This document shows positions 27,649 to 57,571 of a stretch of DNA of 64,000 nt, piece after piece (position 1 is the first letter of the stretch; each line of letters opens with the position of its first letter). The position numbers and the translations under genes were made by a program. Source of the DNA: Brevundimonas sp. (GTDB lineage Bacteria > Pseudomonadota > Alphaproteobacteria > Caulobacterales > Caulobacteraceae); assembly GCF_035626975.1 (NCBI RefSeq), contig NZ_DASPMQ010000001.1, forward strand, positions 4,574 to 68,573. Direction: 5' to 3'. The notes under the pieces are model-generated. The model made no database searches. It was given only the letters and a program-made list of their open reading frames with translations, and was not told where the DNA came from.

Positions 27649-27674
27649 ATGTCCGTTAGGGGTGGATGGCGGAC
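27649..27674 (-). repeat. CACCC-core hairpin unit
   Basis: Minus strand GTCCGC-CATC-CACCC-CTA-ACGGAC(AT), 1 nt after the stop of ORF 27676. Confidence 0.75.
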
Positions 27675-27675
27675 C

Positions 27676-28131
27676 TCACTTCCGGGTGAAGCGCCGGATG
27701 TCGAACCCGAGCAGAACGCCCTCACCCAACCGGGCAACGCAATTGGGCGACAGCGCCACAAGATCCGATGCTGGACGATCGTCCAGCACGATCCTGACCC
27801 GAGACTTTGACTCCGCGGCGAGGACAGTGACGGGGCCGTCGAAACAACGCTGGGCGACGGCGCCTGCATCCAACACAAGGCTTCCGGGTGTCGCATCTGT
27901 CGGAAACGGCTCAAACAGGCGCTCACCCGCCCAATGCGTGCTGTGGATCATAAGCTCGAGCCGACAAACCATCCTCCCTTCCGCAAACGGGAGCAGCAAA
28001 GAGCTGTCGATGTTGAGTTCATCCTCGACAGTCGGCCAACCTGAGTCGACGATCAGGAACGGCCGCCGCCGCGCATGCGCCAGCGATCCTCTGGGGGAAA
28101 AGGGGCCGCGTGTCGCGCGGATGTGGGCCAT
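27676..28131 (-). CDS. Hypothetical protein (putative cassette cargo; start uncertain)
   Basis: Open frame with atypical, AT-richer codons, bracketed by hairpin units at 27649 and 28158; alternative starts at 27972 and 27951. Confidence 0.45.
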   Translation of the reverse strand: MAHIRATRGPFSPRGSLAHARRRPFLIVDSGWPTVEDELNIDSSLLLPFAEGRMVCRLELMIHSTHWAGERLFEPFPTDATPGSLVLDAGAVAQRCFDGPVTVLAAESKSRVRIVLDDRPASDLVALSPNCVARLGEGVLLGFDIRRFTRK

Positions 28132-28157
28132 GCTGCAGCTAAGCAGAAGCGAGGCAG

Positions 28158-28180
28158 GGCCGCCACGGGTCGATGCGGCG
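28158..28180 (-). repeat. GACCC-core hairpin unit (degenerate)
   Basis: Minus strand CGCCGC-ATC-GACCC-GTG-GCGGCC. Confidence 0.55.
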
Positions 28181-28224
28181 AATGTCTCCACCGCAAAGAG
28201 CCGCCTTATCCGCCATCCCTCTCC

Positions 28225-28362
28225 CCGTCACCCTCGGGCTTGACCCGGGGATCAGACCGTCCGGTGCTCCGTCGAGCACACCACGGTCGGGCACGCAGGG
28301 CCGTCACCGCCGCACAGCCCGTCTCTCGCCCCTGATCCTCGGATCAAGTCCGAGGATGACGG
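28225..28362. repeat. REP/MITE-like inverted-repeat element (GTCATCCTCGGGCTTGACCCGAGG family)
   Basis: Arms 28225-28255 and 28332-28362 are near-perfect reverse complements; same family as 37992-38123. Confidence 0.85.
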
Positions 28363-28411
28363 CGGTGGTGAGATTGGGGCCTGAAAAATGCTTGGAACAG
28401 ATACGGTGAAG

Positions 28412-28435
28412 GACTGCAGCGGGTCGGAAGCGGCT
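28412..28435 (-). repeat. GACCC-core hairpin unit
   Basis: Minus strand AGCCGC-TTCC-GACCC-GCT-GCAGTC, 5 nt after the stop of ORF 28441. Confidence 0.65.
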
Positions 28436-39496: not shown

Positions 39497-39790
39497 CAAA
39501 ACCCTGTCATCCCGTACCCTGTCATCCCGACACTTCGGGCGTCATTCCGACACTCCCGGTCACGCCCAGGCGAAGCGCGCCGGCGGCTCTAAGACCCCCA
39601 CGTCCGCTTCTGACGCAGGCCCGTGCATAATGGTCCAAATGCCCGCCGGGCGTGGTCTTTGACAGCACCCATCACCCCGCCGCCGCCGTCCAGGCGCGGT
39701 GATCCCGCAATCGGAACCCTACGTGCGATTGTTCATGAAGTGACAGCCCGCATTTTTCAGCGGGAACCCTGTCATCCCGCACCCCCGGGC
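39497..39790 (-). repeat. Degenerate ~300-bp non-coding repeat, copy A
   Basis: ACCCTGTCATCCCG at about 39501, 39516 and 39766; the reverse complement carries CTTCATGA, TGTCAAAGACC and TGCGTCAG in the same order as 51060-51360. Confidence 0.55.
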
Positions 39791-49188: not shown

Positions 49189-51039
49189 ATGACAGACACG
49201 ACCGCCCCTGCTCCCGACGTCGCCGACCTTCACGGGCGGCCCGGCGCGGGCGCGCTCCTGGTCGAGCAGATGAGCGAGGCGGGCGCCCGGCGGGCGAAGC
49301 GGCGGGACATCCGCCCCCTGGGCCGGCTGCTGCCCTACGCCCTGCGGCACAAGGGGCATATGGCCATGGCGGGGGTCTGGCTGATCCTGTCCACGGCCGC
49401 CTCGCTGGCCCTGACGGTGACCGCGCGCGGGGCGATCGACAACGGTTTCGAGAACGGCGGAGCGCAGCTGAACCTGTGGTTCATGGTGCTGGCGGTGAAT
49501 GCGCTGTTTCTCGGCCTCGCCACGGCCGTCCGCTATTTCTTCGTCACCAAAACCGGCGAGCGCGTGATCGCCGATGTGCGCAAGGGGCTGTTCGAGCGAA
49601 TCCTGACGCTGGACCCGGCCTTCTACGCGCAGATGCGCACGGGCGAGGTGCTGTCGCGCCTGACCACCGATATCGCCCTGGTCGAGACCCTGCTGACGAC
49701 GTCGGTGTCCTACGCCCTGCGCAACGCCCTGACCCTGATCGGGGGAACGGTGCTGCTGTTCGTGGTCAGCCCCAAGCTGACCGGACTGGTCCTGCTGGTG
49801 GTGCCGCTGCTGCTGGGACCGCTGTTCCTGTTCGGGCGCAAGGTCCGGCGGCTCACCGTGGCCTCGCAGGACCGGTTCGCCAGCGCTGTCGGCTTCGCCG
49901 GCGAGAGCGTCGACGCCATCGAGACGGTGCAGGCCTTCGGGCGCGAGAAGAGCGCCATCGCCCGGTTCGGCGACGCCGTCGAGGCGGCGTTCGGCGTGTC
50001 GCTGGTCCGCATCCGGGCCCGGGCCCTGATGACCGCCATGATCATTGTGGTGATGTTCGGCGGCGTGACGCTGGTGCTGTGGCTGGGCGCGCAGGACGTG
50101 ATCGCCGGGCGGATGACGCCGGGGGCCCTGCTGCAGTTCGTGCTGCTGTCGGTGTTCGCGGCGGGCGCGGTCGGAGCGCTCGGCGAGAGCTGGGGCGACG
50201 TGCAGAAGGCCGCGGGGGCCATGGAGCGGATCGACGAACTGATGCGTAGCACGCCGGCGATCGCGCCGCCCGCCGCGCCGCGAGCCTTGCCGCAGCCGCC
50301 CATCGGCGAGGTGTCGATGTCGGCGGTGCGGTTCAGCTATCCGGGGCGACCCGACCTGCCGGCGCTGAAGGGGTTCTCGCTGACCGTCCGGCCCGGCGAG
50401 ACCGTGGCGCTGGTCGGCCCGTCGGGGGCGGGCAAGAGCACCGTCTTCCGCCTGCTGCTGCGCTTCTACGATCCCCAATCCGGCGTGGTGTCGGTGGATG
50501 GCGTCGACGTGCGCGAAGCGGATCCGGTGGCGGTGCGCGACCGCTTCGCCTGGGTCTCGCAGGAGGCGCCGCTTTTCTCAGGTTCCGCGAGCGAAAACAT
50601 TCGCTTCGGCCGGGAAGCCGCCAGCCTGGATGACGTCCGGACCGCCGCCGCCGAAGCCCAGGCCCTGGGGTTTATCGACGCCCTGCCGCAGGGGTTCGAC
50701 ACCCCGCTGGGCGAGCGCGGCAAGAGCCTGTCGGGCGGCCAGCGCCAGCGCATGGCCATCGCCCGCGCCCTGGTTCGCGACGCCCCGATCCTGCTGCTGG
50801 ACGAGGCGACCTCGGCCCTCGACGCCGAGAGCGAGCGGCTGGTGCAGAGGGCGCTGGACCAGGCCATGGAGGCCCGGACCACCATCGTCATCGCCCACCG
50901 CCTCGCCACCGTCCTGCGGGCCGACCGCATCGTGGTGATGGAGGACGGGCAGGTGGTGGAGGAGGGGACCCATGCCGCCTTGAAGGCGCGCGGCGGCCTG
51001 TACGCCCGGCTGGCGGAGCTGCAATTCCGGGCGGACTGA
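49189..51039 (+). CDS. Fused ABC exporter, permease plus ATPase (MsbA-like)
   Basis: [42 protein letters not shown]. Confidence 0.93.
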
Positions 51040-51059
51040 CCCTGTCGCCCAAAAATCGC

Positions 51060-51360
51060 GAAACCCTGTCATCCCGACACATTCGAGCGGCCGGTCCTGG
51101 GCGGAGCGACGCTTCATGACGATGTCAAAGACCGATACCGTGCACTGTAGGGCGAGGGTGCGTCAGGATCGGTCGTGGCGCTTGGTGGCCCGGTGGCGGC
51201 GGGAGTCGTCGTCGCGCAAGTGTCAGCGTGGGTTGCCGGCGGGCGCATTATCCCTTTGCGTGACTCCCGGCCCATCGGCGTTCCGCCAGAGCATCGACGC
51301 TGGAGGGCGGGGTGCACGGGATGGCAGGGTTTGGCGCCGTTTGGCCGGGATGGCAGGGTC
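51060..51360 (+). repeat. Degenerate ~300-bp non-coding repeat, copy B
   Basis: AAACCCTGTCATCCCG at 51061 and inverted CGGGATGGCAGGGT twice at about 51317 and 51346; internal motifs shared with 39497-39790. Confidence 0.55.
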
Positions 51361-51437
51361 CGGGAATCCACCCCGGAGAGGACACGAGCGAGCGGTGACA
51401 GCCTGGGATAAGAGGGCTTCGCTGCGGCCGTCGGCGA

Positions 51438-51463
51438 GTCCGGATCGACCCAACGCGGACATT
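51438..51463 (+). repeat. GACCC-core hairpin unit (array junction 1)
   Basis: GTCCGG-ATC-GACCC-AAC-GCGGAC-ATT. Confidence 0.7.
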
Positions 51464-51567
51464 CGGAAACCCGCTGAAGCCGGGCAGATGGACCCCGTGT
51501 TCCCATGGGCTTTGAGGCGTCGTCACCGCATTTGCGGATGGCGACGACGCCGGTCACAGTCGACAGC

Positions 51568-51930
51568 ATGGAAAGATATCTTTGGCCACATCCAGCGGGC
51601 GTAGAAGCGGTGAACGAGCTGCTTCGCCTCCCTGTTCGTGGGACAGAACAAGACTGGGAAATTGAGCTCGCCGATGGCGCCCGGACATCCGGGTTCCTGC
51701 AGGCATTCGAAAGCGGCGTCCTCGATCTCGAAGGCCGCAGTGCGCTCGCGTTGCTGATCCTGTTTTCGATCACCTATTCCGAGGTCGATATTGGCCACGA
51801 GGACCTCGAAAGAGTCCGACGCGCAATCCGGGGCGACCCGACAGTCCTGCAACGCATGCAAAGCTACTGGGGCAAGGGCTTCGCGGATCACGAGGAAAAG
51901 GTGAAGAGTCTGATCCTCCAGGTCTGCTAG
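51568..51930 (+). CDS. Hypothetical protein (cassette cargo, immunity-protein-like size and composition)
   Basis: 120-aa ORF (TEQDWEIELAD...); its TAG stop lies inside the next repeat unit. Confidence 0.6.
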   Translation: MERYLWPHPAGVEAVNELLRLPVRGTEQDWEIELADGARTSGFLQAFESGVLDLEGRSALALLILFSITYSEVDIGHEDLERVRRAIRGDPTVLQRMQSYWGKGFADHEEKVKSLILQVC

Positions 51931-51968
51931 CCACCCTTAGGCGCGTCGGCTTCCGACCCATTGCGGAC
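51922..51968 (+). repeat. Hairpin doublet (array junction 2)
   Basis: GTCTGC-TAGC-CACCC-TTA-GGCGC + GTCGGC-TTCC-GACCC-ATT-GCGGAC. Confidence 0.85.
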
Positions 51969-51987
51969 TCCGGCTTCCCAGTAGCCC

Positions 51988-52392
51988 TCAGCGGGCAGCG
52001 GCTCGCTCGAAGTCGCCTACCGCGAACCGGGGTCTGGCGCAGGCGCTTGTGGACAGCGTGCTGCCCTGCGTGCGGGCAAGAACGAGAACTTCTCGTGATT
52101 GAACGAAGTCTATACCGCAGGTAGCCCCCCAAGCACCGGGCGCGTGCGCGATCCGCTGAACAGCGCTGTGACCCCCCTTTAATGTGCGGGAGACAACGAA
52201 CTCAGTCACCAAGTATCCTTCGCGCCCCTTTGTCGAGTCAGGCACGGTCGATACCGCCTGTCCAACGAACGCGATGTCTGCAGCACCTAGTTGATCGGAG
52301 GCACTTCTCCAAGTTGGGCAGGAGCATGCCCACGCCACTCCGGCGATCAGCATCAAGGCATTTGCACAGATCAGCGTGGTAATGATGCGCAT
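51988..52392 (-). CDS. Secreted N-TIMP/NTR-fold-like protein (cassette cargo)
   Basis: Signal peptide ending AWA then CSC; ADIAFVG, FVVSRTLKG, TCGIDF, EVLVLA, STSAC. Confidence 0.6.
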   Translation of the reverse strand: MRIITTLICANALMLIAGVAWACSCPTWRSASDQLGAADIAFVGQAVSTVPDSTKGREGYLVTEFVVSRTLKGGHSAVQRIAHAPGAWGATCGIDFVQSREVLVLARTQGSTLSTSACARPRFAVGDFERAAAR

Positions 52393-52428
52393 GACGGCAC
52401 GTTAGCAAGGGCGCATCGTTTTACCAAA

Positions 52429-52477
52429 GTCAGCTAACCATCCTTAGGCGACGGTCGGCTTGCGACCCATTGCGGAC
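52429..52477 (+). repeat. Hairpin doublet (array junction 3)
   Basis: GTCAGC-TAAC-CATCC-TTA-GGCGAC + GTCGGC-TTGC-GACCC-ATT-GCGGAC, 25 bp apart. Confidence 0.85.
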
Positions 52478-52554
52478 GTGCAGCATCGGTGAAAAGGTCG
52501 AGAAGCTGGAAGCCGCGATTTTAGGTTTGGCCTGAACGGTTATCTGACGGCGAA

Positions 52555-52740
52555 ATGGACGCCCGCGAAGACATGAAAGCTGCTCGGGTTCTTACCTTCG
52601 TAGGTCTATGGGTCCTCCTCTGGCTCCTTTTGGTTTTCCTTGGAGCCTCGACGACTTGGTGGCTCGCGGTTCTCATGCTGCCCGTAGCCGCTGTCCCCGC
52701 CGTGCTGACCACGCGAGCACTATTTCGGCAAAAGGCTTAG
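52555..52740 (+). CDS. Small two-helix membrane protein (cassette cargo)
   Basis: Two hydrophobic segments and a basic C-terminus; T-rich codons; lies between two doublets. Confidence 0.5.
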   Translation: MDAREDMKAARVLTFVGLWVLLWLLLVFLGASTTWWLAVLMLPVAAVPAVLTTRALFRQKA

Positions 52741-52772
52741 CATCTGACGGCTTTGGTCAGCGCGTCAGGAGA

Positions 52773-52824
52773 GTCCGCTAATCACCCGCAGGCGACAGTC
52801 TGCTCCCGACCCGTTGCGGACATT
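52773..52824 (+). repeat. Hairpin doublet (array junction 4)
   Basis: GTCCGC-TAAT-CACCC-GCA-GGCGAC + GTCTGC-TCCC-GACCC-GTT-GCGGAC-ATT, 25 bp apart. Confidence 0.85.
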
Positions 52825-52866
52825 GCGTGCCTCGGCTCAGGTTGGCGTTGGTGAACGGGGGCCGAG

Positions 52867-53265
52867 ATGCCGAGACTTCTGAGGTGGGTGTCGCAATTTG
52901 GATTGATGGTTCTTTGCGCCTGTTCGGGCGTCGGCCAGTCCGATGACAATATGTGGGGGAAGTCGGTCGCTGCACCGGGTCCGTTTTTCGCCGAGCCCGG
53001 CGGCGAGTCTCTTGTGTTGCCGACTTCGGTATCTGCGTTGAACGGCTACATCGCCCGCACCGGCGCGATCTCAGATTATAGAGGCCCCGGTCAGACGCTA
53101 AGCGCACCGGTTCCGCTTCCTCGATCAATATGTCAGCCGACGATTGAAGCCGTGGTGTTCAGCTATCCTCTCCAGCCCAGCGGTTTTGTGCCGGGTTACA
53201 CCGCCCACATCACCGGTGGGACAGTTGTGTGTATTGACCGCCGATTTGCTTACACGGGACCATAG
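52867..53265 (+). CDS. Putative lipoprotein (cassette cargo)
   Basis: Basic N-terminus and lipobox-like VLCAC; atypical codon usage; stop 5 nt before the next doublet. Confidence 0.55.
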   Translation: MPRLLRWVSQFGLMVLCACSGVGQSDDNMWGKSVAAPGPFFAEPGGESLVLPTSVSALNGYIARTGAISDYRGPGQTLSAPVPLPRSICQPTIEAVVFSYPLQPSGFVPGYTAHITGGTVVCIDRRFAYTGP

Positions 53266-53270
53266 CCAAC

Positions 53271-53322
53271 GTCCGCTTCCCACCCATTGCGGTCCGTCGG
53301 CTTCCGACCCTTTGCGGACATT
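53271..53322 (+). repeat. Hairpin doublet (array junction 5)
   Basis: GTCCGC-TTCC-CACCC-ATT-GCGGTC + GTCGGC-TTCC-GACCC-TTT-GCGGAC-ATT, 25 bp apart. Confidence 0.88.
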
Positions 53323-53361
53323 CCCTTCGCCATGAAAGGTCGAACCTCCATCTACAGCAGA

Positions 53362-55140
53362 TCACCGCCCCGAATTGGTCCGAGACCTCGGGGCAATCCT
53401 CGGCCTGAGCGCGGAAATGCTCGCCGCCAATTCGGCCTGGCGGAACGGTTTGCTCAACCGCGGCATGCCGGGCTCTATTTCGATCGCTTCAGCGTAGCCG
53501 GACACGATGAGGACAGGCAGGTCCGGGTCCTGGGAGGTAAGCTGCCGGGCCAACTGAGCGCCGTTCATCCCTGGCATCATATGATCTGTCACGAGAAGGT
53601 CAGGGTTGAGGCCGTCATCGAGCAAGCGCAACGCCTCCTCGGCCGAGGCTGCTTCCAGCACGCGGTAGCCGAGGTCCATCAGCATCTGACCGGTGCTCAT
53701 GCGAACCAGGTCGTCGTCGTCAACAAGCAACGCCGTGCCGAAACCTCGGCATGGGTCGGCGGCATCTCCGGGTTGGTCGTTCGCGTCCGCCGGGACGGCG
53801 CTGACCGGAAGCCACAGGTCGACCGTCGTCCCCCGCCCGGGACTGCTTGTAATGGTCAGGTCGCCGTTCTGCTGCAGAGCCAGCCCATGAACCATGGAGA
53901 GGCCGAGGCCGGTGCCGTTGCCGACGCCCTTTGTCGAGAAGAAGGGTTCGATGGCGCGTGAAAGCGTCGCGTCGTCCATACCGGCGCCGGTGTCCGACAC
54001 AGACAGCCGCACATAGCGGCCCGCGCCGAGGCGGCGCGATTTGCCTGAAGGGGTCAATTCCGGCACCGCGGATATCTTCAGCACGCCGCCTTCCGGCATG
54101 GCGTCGCGGGCGTTCACTGCGAGGTTCAGGAGCGCCATCTCGAGTTGGTTGAAGTCGGCGGTTACAGGAGGAAGGTCATCCGGCAGTTCAATCCGAACCT
54201 CTACTTTTGCGCCGACTGTGCTTGAGATGAGCTGGACCATCTCCTGCACCAGTTGGTTCAAATCGACTGCACCTGGCTGAAGAGGCTGACGTCGTGCGAA
54301 CGCCAGAAGGCGCTGCACGAGGATTTTCGCCCGCTCGGCGGACTGCAGCGCCCCGTCGACCAGTCTCTGCTCACGCTCGCTGCCCACGCCCCGCCGCATG
54401 AGCATGTCCAGGCTGCCGATAATCGGCGAAAGAAGATTGTTGAAGTCATGCGCGACGCCACCCGTCAGCTGACCAATCGCTTCCATTTTCTGGGCTTGTC
54501 GCAGGGCGTCCTCCGCTTTCAGGCGCTCGGCGATCTCATCCTGCACACGCAGCTCCAGCGTCTCGTTCAGCAGGCGAAGCTCCTCGTTCAGGCGCGCTGA
54601 ATCGGACAAGGCATTCCGCAGGGCCAGAGCGTTTCTGGCGAGCTCGGCCCGCGCCCGATCCAGCGACGACGCCAGCGCGGTGGCGCGGCGGGTCACATCG
54701 CCCGACGACCGCGCGCTGGCGGCGGCGGCCTCTTCGCGCACCTCCGACCTTAGCAGCGCAAGCATCAAATCGGCGGCGTCGGCAAGGTCGGAGACCAGGA
54801 CCTGGGGCTCCCCGCCGATGAGCATCAAAACCGCGCCGTCAGGGGCGATGAAAACGTCAGCGGAGGACAGGCTCCGGGCTTCGGGCCAGGCGACGGTTGT
54901 GCGGAACTCCCCTCCGCCGGCGCACCGGGCCAGAAGCTCGGTCCAGGTGGGGCCTCCCGGAAGCGTCTGGCGAAAGCCGGGCGCCGGCCGCAGTACGCAT
55001 AACTCCGGATCCGGCAGCAGGATGAGAAAGTCCAGCGCGCCAAGGCGCCGCGCCAGTGCGGCGGCCTCGGACGCGCGACTCCGTCTGTCGGCCAGAGCCG
55101 AGATGAGGCGAATCAGGTCGTGGCCGCTCTGATGGGTCAC
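53362..55140 (-). CDS. Cytoplasmic hybrid histidine kinase-response regulator
   Basis: GGVAHDFNN, FFSTKGVGNGTGLGL, REC (VDDDD, TDHMMP, KP); GTG start overlaps the FIST gene TGA. Confidence 0.88.
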   Translation of the reverse strand: MTHQSGHDLIRLISALADRRSRASEAAALARRLGALDFLILLPDPELCVLRPAPGFRQTLPGGPTWTELLARCAGGGEFRTTVAWPEARSLSSADVFIAPDGAVLMLIGGEPQVLVSDLADAADLMLALLRSEVREEAAAASARSSGDVTRRATALASSLDRARAELARNALALRNALSDSARLNEELRLLNETLELRVQDEIAERLKAEDALRQAQKMEAIGQLTGGVAHDFNNLLSPIIGSLDMLMRRGVGSEREQRLVDGALQSAERAKILVQRLLAFARRQPLQPGAVDLNQLVQEMVQLISSTVGAKVEVRIELPDDLPPVTADFNQLEMALLNLAVNARDAMPEGGVLKISAVPELTPSGKSRRLGAGRYVRLSVSDTGAGMDDATLSRAIEPFFSTKGVGNGTGLGLSMVHGLALQQNGDLTITSSPGRGTTVDLWLPVSAVPADANDQPGDAADPCRGFGTALLVDDDDLVRMSTGQMLMDLGYRVLEAASAEEALRLLDDGLNPDLLVTDHMMPGMNGAQLARQLTSQDPDLPVLIVSGYAEAIEIEPGMPRLSKPFRQAELAASISALRPRIAPRSRTNSGR

Positions 55141-56297
55141 GCCGGAACAACAACGACCACGGCCGTGCAGTTGTGAAATCCTTCGAACTGACCCTCTGCG
55201 CGGGCGATCTGCCCGTGGGTGTTGCACCCGACGAGATCGGCGCCGGCGAGCTGCGCGCGCACTGTGGCGATTTCGTCGCTGAACCGGTCGCCCATCCGGA
55301 GCCTGGTCGCCACGCAGTCAAAGAAGAGCGCCGCCTGCGGCTTCATCCCTCCGAGGGCGGCCAGGGCAGCCTGGGTCGCCTCCTGGGCCGCCTCGACGGC
55401 TGACGCCGCTGAGGCCCGCATGATGTAGACGACAGCGCCTTCAGGGATCTCGGCGGCGCAAAGGACCGCCCCATCGGCGAGGATCGCCAGGGGCACGCGC
55501 AGACGGTGAGAACCACCGCTCTCGATGCCGAGAATATTGTGCAGGAAGAACGGGATCGGCGCCGCGCGATCCAGGCTTTGGCCCGTCGTGGCGGCGTAGG
55601 TCTCGAAGATTTCGGCCGCTGGCAGACCATTCAGACTGACAAGCCTCATCCCGTCCGCTTCCGTCACCCGGAAAGGAGTGGATGCAGGCGCCCACCCGTG
55701 GCGCACGCCGATGCCGACTGGCTTCGCCGTGAGCATTTCGAGGGCGACGGCGGCGCCATTCAGCACCTCACGACCCAGAAACACCGAGGTGCGTCGAAAC
55801 TGCGCATTGTCGCCGGCCCCGCCGCCGAAGAACTGATATTGCCCCCCGGTTGCGAGCGTGAGCTCGTCCACCAACAGATCGGCGTGACCAGCCAGGGCGT
55901 CAGTCATCACGAGAGCCGACCGGTGCGGGAAGGCGTAATCGGAAAGCCCGGTAAAGCTGGACGTGATCTGCCGGGCCGCTATCGCCGCGCCGCCAGCGAC
56001 GTCCCGGGCGACGCCGGCTCCGAAGCGCACATCGTCGCCTGCGAGGCCGAGGGCGCAGGCCAGGCCCTCGCCGCGCTCGTGATTCATGAACTCGCCTGCC
56101 GATGAGGCGCCGACCACGAGGGCCGAAGGGCAACGAATGGCGAGTTCGTCGAGAAGAGCGACATGGTCATACGAGGGTGCGGCAAAGACCATGAGGGCCT
56201 GCGGCTCTCGCCCCAGTCCGCGCGTGATCTCACCCGCCAGCCGTCGTCCGGCCTCGCGGGCGTCATTCACATCAGTGGAAGCTGCCGCAGTTTGCAT
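55137..56297 (-). CDS. FIST (NosP-like) signal-transduction protein
   Basis: LVVGASSAGEF, FFGGGAGDN..F, VGIGVRHGW, FFDCVATR, GCNTHGQI..FHNCT are typical FIST_N/FIST_C motifs. Confidence 0.85.
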   Translation of the reverse strand: MQTAAASTDVNDAREAGRRLAGEITRGLGREPQALMVFAAPSYDHVALLDELAIRCPSALVVGASSAGEFMNHERGEGLACALGLAGDDVRFGAGVARDVAGGAAIAARQITSSFTGLSDYAFPHRSALVMTDALAGHADLLVDELTLATGGQYQFFGGGAGDNAQFRRTSVFLGREVLNGAAVALEMLTAKPVGIGVRHGWAPASTPFRVTEADGMRLVSLNGLPAAEIFETYAATTGQSLDRAAPIPFFLHNILGIESGGSHRLRVPLAILADGAVLCAAEIPEGAVVYIMRASAASAVEAAQEATQAALAALGGMKPQAALFFDCVATRLRMGDRFSDEIATVRAQLAGADLVGCNTHGQIARAEGQFEGFHNCTAVVVVVPA

Positions 56298-56334
56298 GGT
56301 TTCCCCCCGTCCAGCCCGCTGGCAAGGCGGAGGG

Positions 56335-56359
56335 AACGTGCGGCCCCTCGTCAGGTTCC
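56335..56359 (-). promoter_or_regulatory. EcfG/SigT-type promoter
   Basis: The minus strand reads GGAAC-N16-CGTT, 37 nt upstream of the FIST start. Confidence 0.7.
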
Positions 56360-56407
56360 GGGGCGATTTCGGGCTTGAGACTAGGGTCAGTCCAGGCGGT
56401 GGTGAAC

Positions 56408-56467
56408 GTCCGCTTTCCACCCGTTCCGGCCGTCTGGCCGGTCCGCTTGCGGGATCGCCGCGCGGAC
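56408..56467. repeat. Hairpin unit plus degenerate inverted unit (right end of array)
   Basis: GTCCGC-TTTC-CACCC-GTT-CCGGCC (56408-56431) and GTCCGC...GCGGAC (56441-56467; reverse complement has a GATCC core). Confidence 0.65.
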
Positions 56468-56527
56468 GTCCGGTGGGCCGTTCATCCCGCCCTCCGGGCC
56501 ACCTTTTCCGAGGAGGGCAGAACGGAG

Positions 56528-57571
56528 CTAGGCCGTCAGCGCCGGATCCAGATATTTCAGGTTCTCCGCGCGGATCTTCGCCGCCGCCTCGTCGTAGAGG
56601 AAGGGCAGGAAGGCGAAACGCTCGCCGCGGGTCACCGGCGTCGCCTCGTGCAGGATCGAGCAGGAGAAGACGCAGGCTCCGCCGGGGGGCGGCCGGTAGG
56701 TGCGCGAGCCGAACTCGGGGAACCTGAGATCGCCGCCGTCGTAGTCGGCGTTCAGGTTGATCGAGACCGCGAAGCGCCGGTGCGCCGTGCCCTTGGTGGT
56801 GTTGTCACGATGCGGCCGGAAGAAGCCGCCGGTCCCGGCGTCGTAGCGGGCGACCAGATAGCGCTCGATCCGGGTCGGCTTGAAGTTGAAGACCTTTTCG
56901 ATCTGGGGGAGCAGACGGCGCGTCAGGCGCGCCACCACCTGCTTCTGAAGCAGGTCGTCCTCGACGATGACGTCCGAGCGCCGCTTGTGCTGGTCGTTCA
57001 TCATCAGGGTGGTGACGCCGTCCACCTCGCGCATGAACCCCGACGGCTCGCCGCCGATCTCGCGGTAGAGGGCGATCAGGCGTTCGCAGAAAGCCGGTTC
57101 GAAGATGCGCGGCGTGACGAGGACCGGCGCCGTGGCCGGGAAGCCGCCGTGTTCCGCCGGCGACGGGAGCGACGGGATGCGGTCGATCAGCGCGCCGGCC
57201 TGGTCCGGATCCACGGCGGCCATGACGTGCAGGGCCGGATCGATCAGGAACCAGCGCCCGGCGTCGCGCGCCTCGTAGAGGTCGGCGACCGCGCCGTCCT
57301 CGTCGAACAGGAACCGCAGGCCGGGCAGGGAGTCCTGGCGGGACTTGCGCCCCTTGTCCTTGCCGATGACCACGACGAAGGCGCTGGCATGGACGTCGTT
57401 GAAGGCGGCCCGTTGCCGGTGGATCGCCGCGACGGCGGCCGCGACGGCCGGCCCCGCCTTGACGAAGGCGAGCAGCAGATAGCGCCCCGCCGCCGTGTCG
57501 AAGACATAGCGGGGGTTGCTCAGCCCCTCGGCCGAGAAGGTCGGGGCGGGATCGCCGTAGAGAAGCGCCAT
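56528..57571 (-). CDS. 2OG-Fe(II) oxygenase with N-terminal thioredoxin/AhpC-like domain
   Basis: GDPAPTF redoxin-like start; RPHRD (HxD), GGDLRF, HEATPVTRGERF. Confidence 0.82.
   Translation of the reverse strand: MALLYGDPAPTFSAEGLSNPRYVFDTAAGRYLLLAFVKAGPAVAAAVAAIHRQRAAFNDVHASAFVVVIGKDKGRKSRQDSLPGLRFLFDEDGAVADLYEARDAGRWFLIDPALHVMAAVDPDQAGALIDRIPSLPSPAEHGGFPATAPVLVTPRIFEPAFCERLIALYREIGGEPSGFMREVDGVTTLMMNDQHKRRSDVIVEDDLLQKQVVARLTRRLLPQIEKVFNFKPTRIERYLVARYDAGTGGFFRPHRDNTTKGTAHRRFAVSINLNADYDGGDLRFPEFGSRTYRPPPGGACVFSCSILHEATPVTRGERFAFLPFLYDEAAAKIRAENLKYLDPALTA

Follow-up and report, generated by a model that had tools for sequence, protein, structure and literature searches.

For the capture of single-gene cassettes, integrons are regarded as the only general platform in bacteria. 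An arm-core-arm layout is shared by the core-type duplex sites at which tyrosine recombinases act, lox, FRT, and dif among them. The pdif (XerC/XerD) modules of Acinetobacter plasmids carry 28-bp, dif-like sites of 11-6-11 layout, which alternate in orientation and depend on the Xer proteins of the host. In engineered recombinase-mediated cassette exchange with heterospecific lox or FRT sites, sites differing in the core allow a double-crossover swap and resist simple deletion. In the main classification of tyrosine recombinases, even the 'simple' members are defined as consisting of a core-binding and a catalytic domain. The subject of this report is a gene-cassette array, punctuated by 24-nt repeated units, at positions 51040-56527 of a 64,000-nt stretch of DNA from Brevundimonas sp. 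(NCBI RefSeq assembly GCF_035626975.1, contig NZ_DASPMQ010000001.1, positions 4,574 to 68,573 of the forward strand); the whole stretch is referred to as the window, and its first nucleotide is position 1. The units are very probably recombination sites that bound mobile cassettes. To judge from sequence comparisons, the array is also likely to belong to an integron-analogous cassette system driven in trans by a minimal tyrosine recombinase of 208 amino acids (aa). No description of this cassette system or of a catalytic-domain-only recombinase class was found in the literature.

The genome that holds the window (G000) comprises 3.37 Mb in 61 contigs with 69% G+C. Labels of the form G### denote Brevundimonas congeners, C## contigs of G000, and L### loci fetched from genomes. 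The comparison set consisted of 61 congeners, in which the ABC transporter gene to the left of the array served as a single-copy anchor, and DNA downstream of it was fetched for the 13 closest.

The region 51040-56527 is a low-GC insertion of five mobile cassettes (the small genes o1-o4 and a FIST/hybrid-kinase pair) between two convergent core genes. G+C falls to 56-63% across the 5,488 bases between the stop codons of the ABC transporter and 2OG-Fe(II) oxygenase genes. The order is leader, lone CGACCC unit, o1, doublet, o2 (reversed), doublet, o3, doublet, o4, doublet, kinase and FIST genes (reversed), CCACCC unit, and a unit-like remnant. Features are given as coordinates, strand, and description, with GC3 denoting G+C at third codon positions:

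49189-51039, +, ABC transporter gene, left flank of the array
51040-51437, +, non-coding leader from the ABC stop codon to the first unit, with 75% identity to its counterpart in G043 (L007)
51046-51347, repeat in the leader resembling a miniature inverted-repeat transposable element (MITE), with inverted ends
51358-51383, +, degenerate CACCC-like unit within the leader
51438-51460, +, first unit, lone, CGACCC core (GTCCGGATCGACCCAACGCGGAC), 5' arm atypical
51568-51930, +, cassette 1 gene o1, 120 aa, GC3 0.68, without family match, stop codon within the next unit
51922-51968, +, doublet 1, CCACCC unit at 51922-51944 followed by CGACCC unit at 51945-51968
51988-52392, -, cassette 2 gene o2, 134-aa secreted Cys-rich protein, reversed relative to the units
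52429-52477, +, doublet 2, CCATCC-core unit followed by CGACCC-core unit
52555-52740, +, cassette 3 gene o3, 61-aa membrane peptide, GC3 0.63
52773-52821, +, doublet 3
52867-53265, +, cassette 4 gene o4, 132-aa lipoprotein-like protein, GC3 0.62
53271-53319, +, doublet 4
53362-56420, -, cassette 5, kinase and FIST block, Pfam match, GC3 0.76-0.77
53362-55227, -, hybrid histidine kinase/response regulator, in cassette 5
55137 to about 56300, -, FIST sensor, in cassette 5
56408-56431, +, terminal CCACCC-core unit
56441-56467, +, degenerate unit-like remnant
56528-57571, -, 2OG-Fe(II) oxygenase gene, right flank, convergent with the ABC gene
27651-28435, -, one-cassette mini-array elsewhere in the window, with GACCC-like units near 28416 and 28158, a low-GC3 open reading frame (ORF), and a CCACCC unit at 27651-27674

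The motif was matched 12 times in the window, against 2.3 matches expected, and none of 100 shuffles reached 12. A first-pass annotation, made by a model from the sequence alone, had placed clear units at 51922/51945, 52429/52454, 52773/52798, 53271/53296, 51438, and 56408; all of these were recovered, and every clear unit of the array lies on the + strand. The weaker units that it had placed at 51358 and 56441 are also present, only as degenerate look-alikes. Its description of o1-o4 as mutually unrelated ORFs of atypical codon usage was borne out as well: they have no Pfam family, no BLASTP match to one another at E<1, and GC3 values of 0.62-0.68, compared with 0.76-0.77 for the kinase/FIST genes and 0.92-0.93 for the flanking core genes. 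Stop codons fall in or beside units as it had reported, the TAG of o1 (51928-51930) inside a unit and the stop codon of o4 5 nt ahead of 53271. To that description can be added the FIST and kinase operon as a fifth unit-bounded block and the mini-array at 27651-28435 (- strand), which is located at the end of the pho operon.

A collection of distinct units numbered 361, of which 224 have a CGACCC core and 129 a CCACCC core. In the 24-nt unit, an asymmetric 6-bp core separates a 9-nt arm (GTCNGCTNN) from a second arm of 9 nt, imperfectly inverted (NNNGCGGAC or NNAGGCGAC); the unit looks like a duplex 9-6-9 core-type site. Pooled over the genomes fetched for this analysis, units share a single orientation in 17 of 19 arrays with at least three units, the remaining two flipping once, and lie a median of 580 nt apart (range 197-2396). 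In doublets the CCACCC unit precedes the CGACCC unit without exception (16/16), with a 25-nt period in 15 of the 16; in the window array the spacing is likewise 25 nt, except for 23 nt at 51922/51945. A cassette is the segment from a CGACCC core to the next core, and abutting cassettes make the CACCC-then-GACCC doublet.

Conservation across the 361 units is of sequence, not structure. The proposal of the first-pass annotation that the unit is a hairpin acting as a single-stranded substrate was rejected, since the arms are without covariation and folding is weak. No compensatory arm changes were found among the 361 units; the base at position 4 of the 5' arm is free to change although its partner is fixed, which gives 72 G.G mismatches as opposed to only 4 G-C pairs. 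The GGCGAC 3' arm, which is mismatched at two of six stem positions, occurs in 64 of 129 CACCC units, and all six stem pairs are possible in only 35% of CGACCC and 20% of CCACCC units, so that most of the latter cannot form the stem. Folding energies of -3.8 (CGACCC) and -2.5 kcal/mol (CCACCC) barely differ from those of shuffles (-2.0 and -1.45), and the 49-nt doublet does not fold. The units matched no Rfam family, a sub-threshold chance match being the only return.

The site is empty in five congeners (G074, G070, G005, G023, and G041), where the ABC and oxygenase genes are convergent with stop codons 2-6 nt apart; the same interval measures 5.5 kb in G000, and its right junction retains a copy of the ancestral ...CTAGGC.GTCAGCGCC seen at the empty sites. 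In the closest relative, G043 (ABC 92% identical), the same leader of ~400 nt (75% identical) is followed by five units bounding entirely different ORFs. In the first unit, similarity between the two genomes continues across the 5' arm and the core and is lost within the 3' arm.

Copies of cassettes within genomes also break at the cores. In G023, loci L002 and L003 share 98% identity over 722 nt, which starts at the CGACCC core and ends after CGACCCA of the next CGACCC unit, the outer arms being different. A second pair in that genome, L001 and L002, has its homology break at the core as well; this boundary joins a CACCC-like 5' arm to a GACCC core, and the two core types may therefore not be strictly exclusive. 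A GNAT acetyltransferase cassette is common to the ends of G000 contigs C8, C19, and C44, with 5' arms GACCGTTTCT and GTCAGCTTTC and identity beginning at GACCC, and in the C40/C44 pair identity stops at the CCACCC core.

The o2 cassette was found at 75-80% identity in G090 (twice), G081, G160, and G022 besides G000, which amounts to six contexts in five species. Its bounds are the same in all six, always between a GACCC unit and a CACCC unit, and in G081 it is a lone insertion between high-GC3 core genes. In the six-way alignment, homology extends from just inside the left CGACCC unit to the right CCACCC core, with none outside. Among 200 other congeners, only G205 has the 3-kb kinase/FIST block; its copy (83% identical over 2.96 kb) occupies another locus, with a degenerate GACCC-like unit on one side and a doublet of a CACCC-like and a GACCC unit on the other. 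Movement as ORF-plus-unit blocks, as had been proposed from the window alone, is thus seen for the o2, kinase/FIST, G023, and GNAT cassettes. No record of o4 elsewhere was found.

A unit profile search placed ~50 units in about 12 arrays in G000, clustered and not scattered. Some cassettes recur in two or more arrays, and for this reason several of the clusters are found at the ends of contigs. Copies of the exact motif number 0-25 per congener, with 43 of the 61 having at least one; 16 genomes from other genera in the order have none, and the reversed-pattern control gave zero. A scan for the doublet signature across 185,579 prokaryote species, one genome each, gave 73 stretches, by far the most of them from records of Brevundimonas or unclassified Caulobacteraceae; the few outside are at about chance level. 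The units are confined to the genus Brevundimonas, with the doublet signature occurring almost only there.

Three outcomes that the first-pass annotation had named as speaking against a cassette array were all examined, and none occurred. The units are not scattered regardless of ORF borders, being clustered in the G000 arrays; gene content is not invariant among relatives, the G043 array being different and the site being empty in five congeners; and the units are not ordinary attC sites, being conserved in sequence, weakly folding, and devoid of the attC boxes.

No tyrosine recombinase or HUH transposase is encoded within the window, in agreement with the first-pass annotation. That annotation had also matched no named recombinase or system to the array; this holds for G000 and fails for its relatives, in which a linked minimal tyrosine recombinase is present. 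In G023, a 214-aa ORF beside the largest array ends 1 nt from the first unit and matches PF00589 at residues 35-198. Homologs of this short recombinase (208 aa, catalytic domain only) occupy 11 loci in 9 of the 61 congeners, with fragments in six more. At all 11 loci a CCACCC-type unit in reverse orientation follows a small hairpin 1-416 nt past the recombinase stop codon, a linkage whose probability by chance was put, by a generous estimate, below 1e-23. At most of the loci a further kind of unit, the third, whose core is TGGCGC, precedes the start codon by about 90 nt. In G056 and G051 inverted repeats of ~46 nt, of which the unit forms part, surround the recombinase gene, with arrays running outward on both sides, and one G072 locus consists of the recombinase gene and one unit among ordinary genes. 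Genomes with an intact recombinase carry a mean of 7.0 units, compared with 2.5 in those without (Mann-Whitney p=0.004).

Of the 295 positions of the XerC model, the recombinase aligns only to 123-281, which belong to the catalytic part, and its sequence shows the catalytic residues R, K, HxxR, H, and Y. Neither an NCBIfam equivalog nor a relative of solved structure was found for it. The family comprises at least 8000 clusters and occurs on 398 plasmids, which span Alpha-, Beta-, and Gammaproteobacteria; proteins 80% identical are found in Hyphomicrobiales and Phenylobacterium, and a homolog on a Bosea plasmid (72% identical) also has a CCCACCC core downstream. Neither G000 nor G043 holds a homolog, and the arrays of G000 are therefore orphans, comparable to the clusters of attC sites lacking an integrase (CALINs) known from integrons.

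In the proposed mechanism, strand exchange by the minimal recombinase within the 6-bp cores would insert, excise, or swap cassettes. Recombination of two like cores flanking a block would free a circle with one doublet, which could enter any like core, while a block between two different cores could be swapped by double crossover and without deletion. The arrays of G000 would have been built earlier or be served in trans by an incoming copy of the recombinase. We infer catalysis by the recombinase at the units, the exact cleavage positions, and the heterospecificity of the two cores; the link between enzyme and site comes from their linkage. The separate gene-capture system acting in trans that had been proposed from the window is supported.

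Several points weigh against this explanation. Seven genomes (G000 and six other congeners) retain 7-23 exact units without any copy of the recombinase, so that the assignment of the enzyme rests on linkage in other genomes, and the recombinase itself could be just another site-flanked passenger. Homology boundaries lie at the CCACCC core in some cases and at the CGACCC core in others, and the reaction scheme given above is accordingly tentative in its details. Only one other contig carries the exact ABC protein, and its layout is identical, with no strain-level polymorphism there. Gene calls in the relatives were made with a crude GC3 heuristic.

A co-oriented variable array beside a conserved platform resembles an integron in logic only. 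Both systems have co-oriented arrays of small, mostly ORFan, compositionally foreign cassettes with one site per junction, arrays without an enzyme, conserved platforms with variable content among relatives, and an implicated tyrosine recombinase. They differ in the enzyme, the likely one in Brevundimonas being 208 aa long and limited to the catalytic domain, whereas IntI has roughly 320 aa, and in the sites, which are sequence-conserved 24-bp duplexes of 9-6-9 layout with two core types, whereas attC is a folded single strand. Furthermore, crossover in Brevundimonas falls in the CGACCC/CCACCC core, there are about a dozen array loci per genome, and the recombinase gene is located at the distal end, convergent with the units and itself flanked by sites.

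The pdif modules are likewise blocks bounded by short core-type sites (arm-6 bp-arm) that are moved discretely, most of them without a recombinase; the Brevundimonas sites, in contrast, are chromosomal and 24 bp long, face the same way, have either of two cores, and show linkage to a dedicated minimal recombinase. FimB and FimE, which act on the fimS switch, are comparable in being tyrosine recombinases of ~200 aa with a very short N-terminal part that are encoded beside short inverted-repeat sites. The Fim proteins, however, invert one promoter segment, whereas the Brevundimonas sites are mostly direct repeats bounding many cargo blocks, and homologous cassette blocks were relocated, not inverted. 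Engineered cassette exchange offers an analogy, with its cassette between two sites that differ only in core or overlap. That is a laboratory design, while in Brevundimonas the heterospecificity of the CGACCC and CCACCC cores is presumed and the L001/L002 boundary suggests occasional cross-recombination.

One alternative accepts the units as real cassette-bounding recombination sites and assigns them to another enzyme, XerC/XerD or an island integrase, with the 208-aa recombinase as a frequent passenger or a selfish mini-element using similar sites. It would account for the arrays of well-conserved units that persist in seven genomes lacking the short recombinase; XerC/D-like genes are present in every genome, and a 516-aa integrase on C44 lies ~1 kb from a doublet. 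It is nevertheless unlikely. Judged by eye against a dif consensus, the units are unlike 28-bp dif-type sites in length and layout, and their patchy occurrence does not fit the universal Xer proteins. None of the six PF00589 matches in G000 adjoins the 51040-56527 array, and the C44 integrase, which has no neighbouring tRNA and does not recur next to other arrays, was rejected as the array enzyme. The 11/11 linkage of the short recombinase with the same site family would be hard to explain.

The units might instead be selfish repeats of the repetitive extragenic palindromic (REP) or MITE kind, or stabilising or terminator hairpins, within acquired DNA, their position at cassette borders being incidental. 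In favour of this, the units are short and partly palindromic, lie between genes, and are concentrated in low-GC islands, and other MITE-like repeats lie nearby. This explanation is very improbable and already largely refuted, given that homology between cassette copies breaks precisely in the cores and that the ~50 copies are clustered and co-oriented, not scattered or in inverted pairs. A search for the Y1 HUH transposase of REP-associated systems (RAYT, PF01797) gave no match in G000, with control genomes positive, and a RAYT/REP origin was rejected. Besides lacking arm covariation, strong folding, and an Rfam match, the units have no T-run, and a role at RNA 3' ends is a misfit because genes lie in both orientations relative to the units. 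Least probable of all, to the point of being nearly negligible, is a classical integron remnant (CALIN) with unusually short attC sites, for all that the layout is integron-like and that ORFan and GNAT/glyoxalase/SUKH-type cargo is typical of chromosomal integrons. No integron integrase (NCBIfam TIGR02249) exceeded the 265-bit cut-off in any of the 61 Brevundimonas genomes, the best score being 94 bits for XerC/D-like genes; the RYYYAAC/GTTRRRY boxes of attC are absent from the units; sequence is conserved rather than structure, in a doublet of 49 nt that stays unfolded; and crossover maps to CGACCC/CCACCC, not to G|TT. An integron was rejected on the absence of IntI, as the first-pass annotation had done from the missing attC features.

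If the cassette system driven by the minimal recombinase is real, a second platform would explain the turnover of small accessory genes at many chromosomal sites without transposases or integron integrases, with cargo that includes secreted proteins, immunity-like SUKH proteins, acetyltransferases, and a complete sensor-kinase pair. Its enzyme would be much smaller, its sites ordinary duplexes, and its insertion loci many in each genome. The analysis marks the FIST/kinase pair and the four ORFans of G000 as cargo that is swappable and recently acquired and that does not belong to the core regulon. A wider proposal, for which the chances are about even, is that catalytic-domain-only recombinases form a general, integron-independent exchange system, acting in trans on two heterospecific 9-6-9 sites to insert, excise, and swap blocks of genes, as nature's equivalent of recombinase-mediated cassette exchange; the Brevundimonas version of this system would be chromosomal and multi-locus, with orphan arrays as its footprint. 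Thousands of genes would gain an annotation if a function were assigned to the recombinase family, which is very large and has none so far. A compact tool for genome engineering could also come from a recombinase of 208 aa and its 24-bp sites of two specificities.

The short recombinase is often fragmented or interrupted by a stop codon (G013, G046, G059, G007, G019, G022, G051:C2:375487-376118, and G023 L102); it appears that the gene frequently decays or is lost while the arrays stay. Units with the TGGCGC core (GTCCGCTnnTGGCGCnnnGCGGAC) were found in G000 at C59:16087, 17692, and 26840(-), C5:100201, C61:106245, C25:10033(-), and C8:51795(-), 58304(-), and 60264(-); the search was noisy at 3 mismatches (33 matches in the control), and conclusions are limited to near-exact copies. 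Those on C8 are inverted and located 50-70 nt from array units with nothing between, an arrangement that could be the scar of a lost recombinase module. In G023 (L003:5133(+)/5250(-)), an array ends in two inverted CCACCC-type units that are ~70 nt apart and enclose no gene; units in the same geometry flank the short recombinase of G056 and G051, whereas the G023 pair is empty. A 553-aa large serine recombinase, the same in G023 (L003:11145-12806) and G056 (L093:11495-13156), is encoded 2-3 kb beyond the arrays. It was rejected as the array enzyme, being absent from G000 and at least 2 kb from units, and is probably the integrase of a larger island carrying an array.

Cassettes elsewhere in G000 and in G023 encode SUKH-1/SMI1-KNR4, YunG, glyoxalase, GNAT acetyltransferase, HAD hydrolase, ankyrin-repeat, DUF2283, and DUF4279 proteins, together with many small secreted or membrane ORFans. 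The arrays of these genomes also include predicted serine-hydrolase-family proteins, read from a sequence motif alone; two unit-bounded cassettes, at C8:56938-58224(-) and C19:119708-121132(-), encode predicted secreted serine hydrolases of 430-470 aa with a beta-lactamase/transpeptidase-like fold and an S-x-x-K motif. The o2 protein (~130 aa, with a signal peptide followed by C-S-C-P; homologs at L105-L109) is the only product of a window cassette conserved across species, which suggests a selected function for this secreted Cys-rich protein. Directly upstream of the short recombinase in G023, L001:67-3945 encodes a UvrD/PD-(D/E)XK helicase-nuclease, a multiubiquitin protein, and a DUF6791-ThiF (E1-like) protein. 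Together they resemble a ubiquitin-like cluster for defence against phage, and the array would therefore border a defence island.

Most of the leader (51046-51347) is filled by a non-coding MITE-like repeat of ~300 nt with inverted ends AAACCCTGTCATCCCG / CGGGATGGCAGGGTTT, which is present at the same site in G043. Other copies, at 39497-39790 of the window, C17:18613-18865, and C6:48203-48453, are without adjoining units. The 400-nt leader was considered as an attI-like platform and rejected, as its ends are copies of this unrelated repeat; of the leader and first-unit region, only the 5' arm of the first unit can be said to be assignable to the platform. A second, unrelated MITE-like element (CGTCATCCTCGG...CCGAGGGTGACGG) lies inside the mini-array at ~28190-28400 (-) of the window and beside the array end in G043 (L007:5300-5440).

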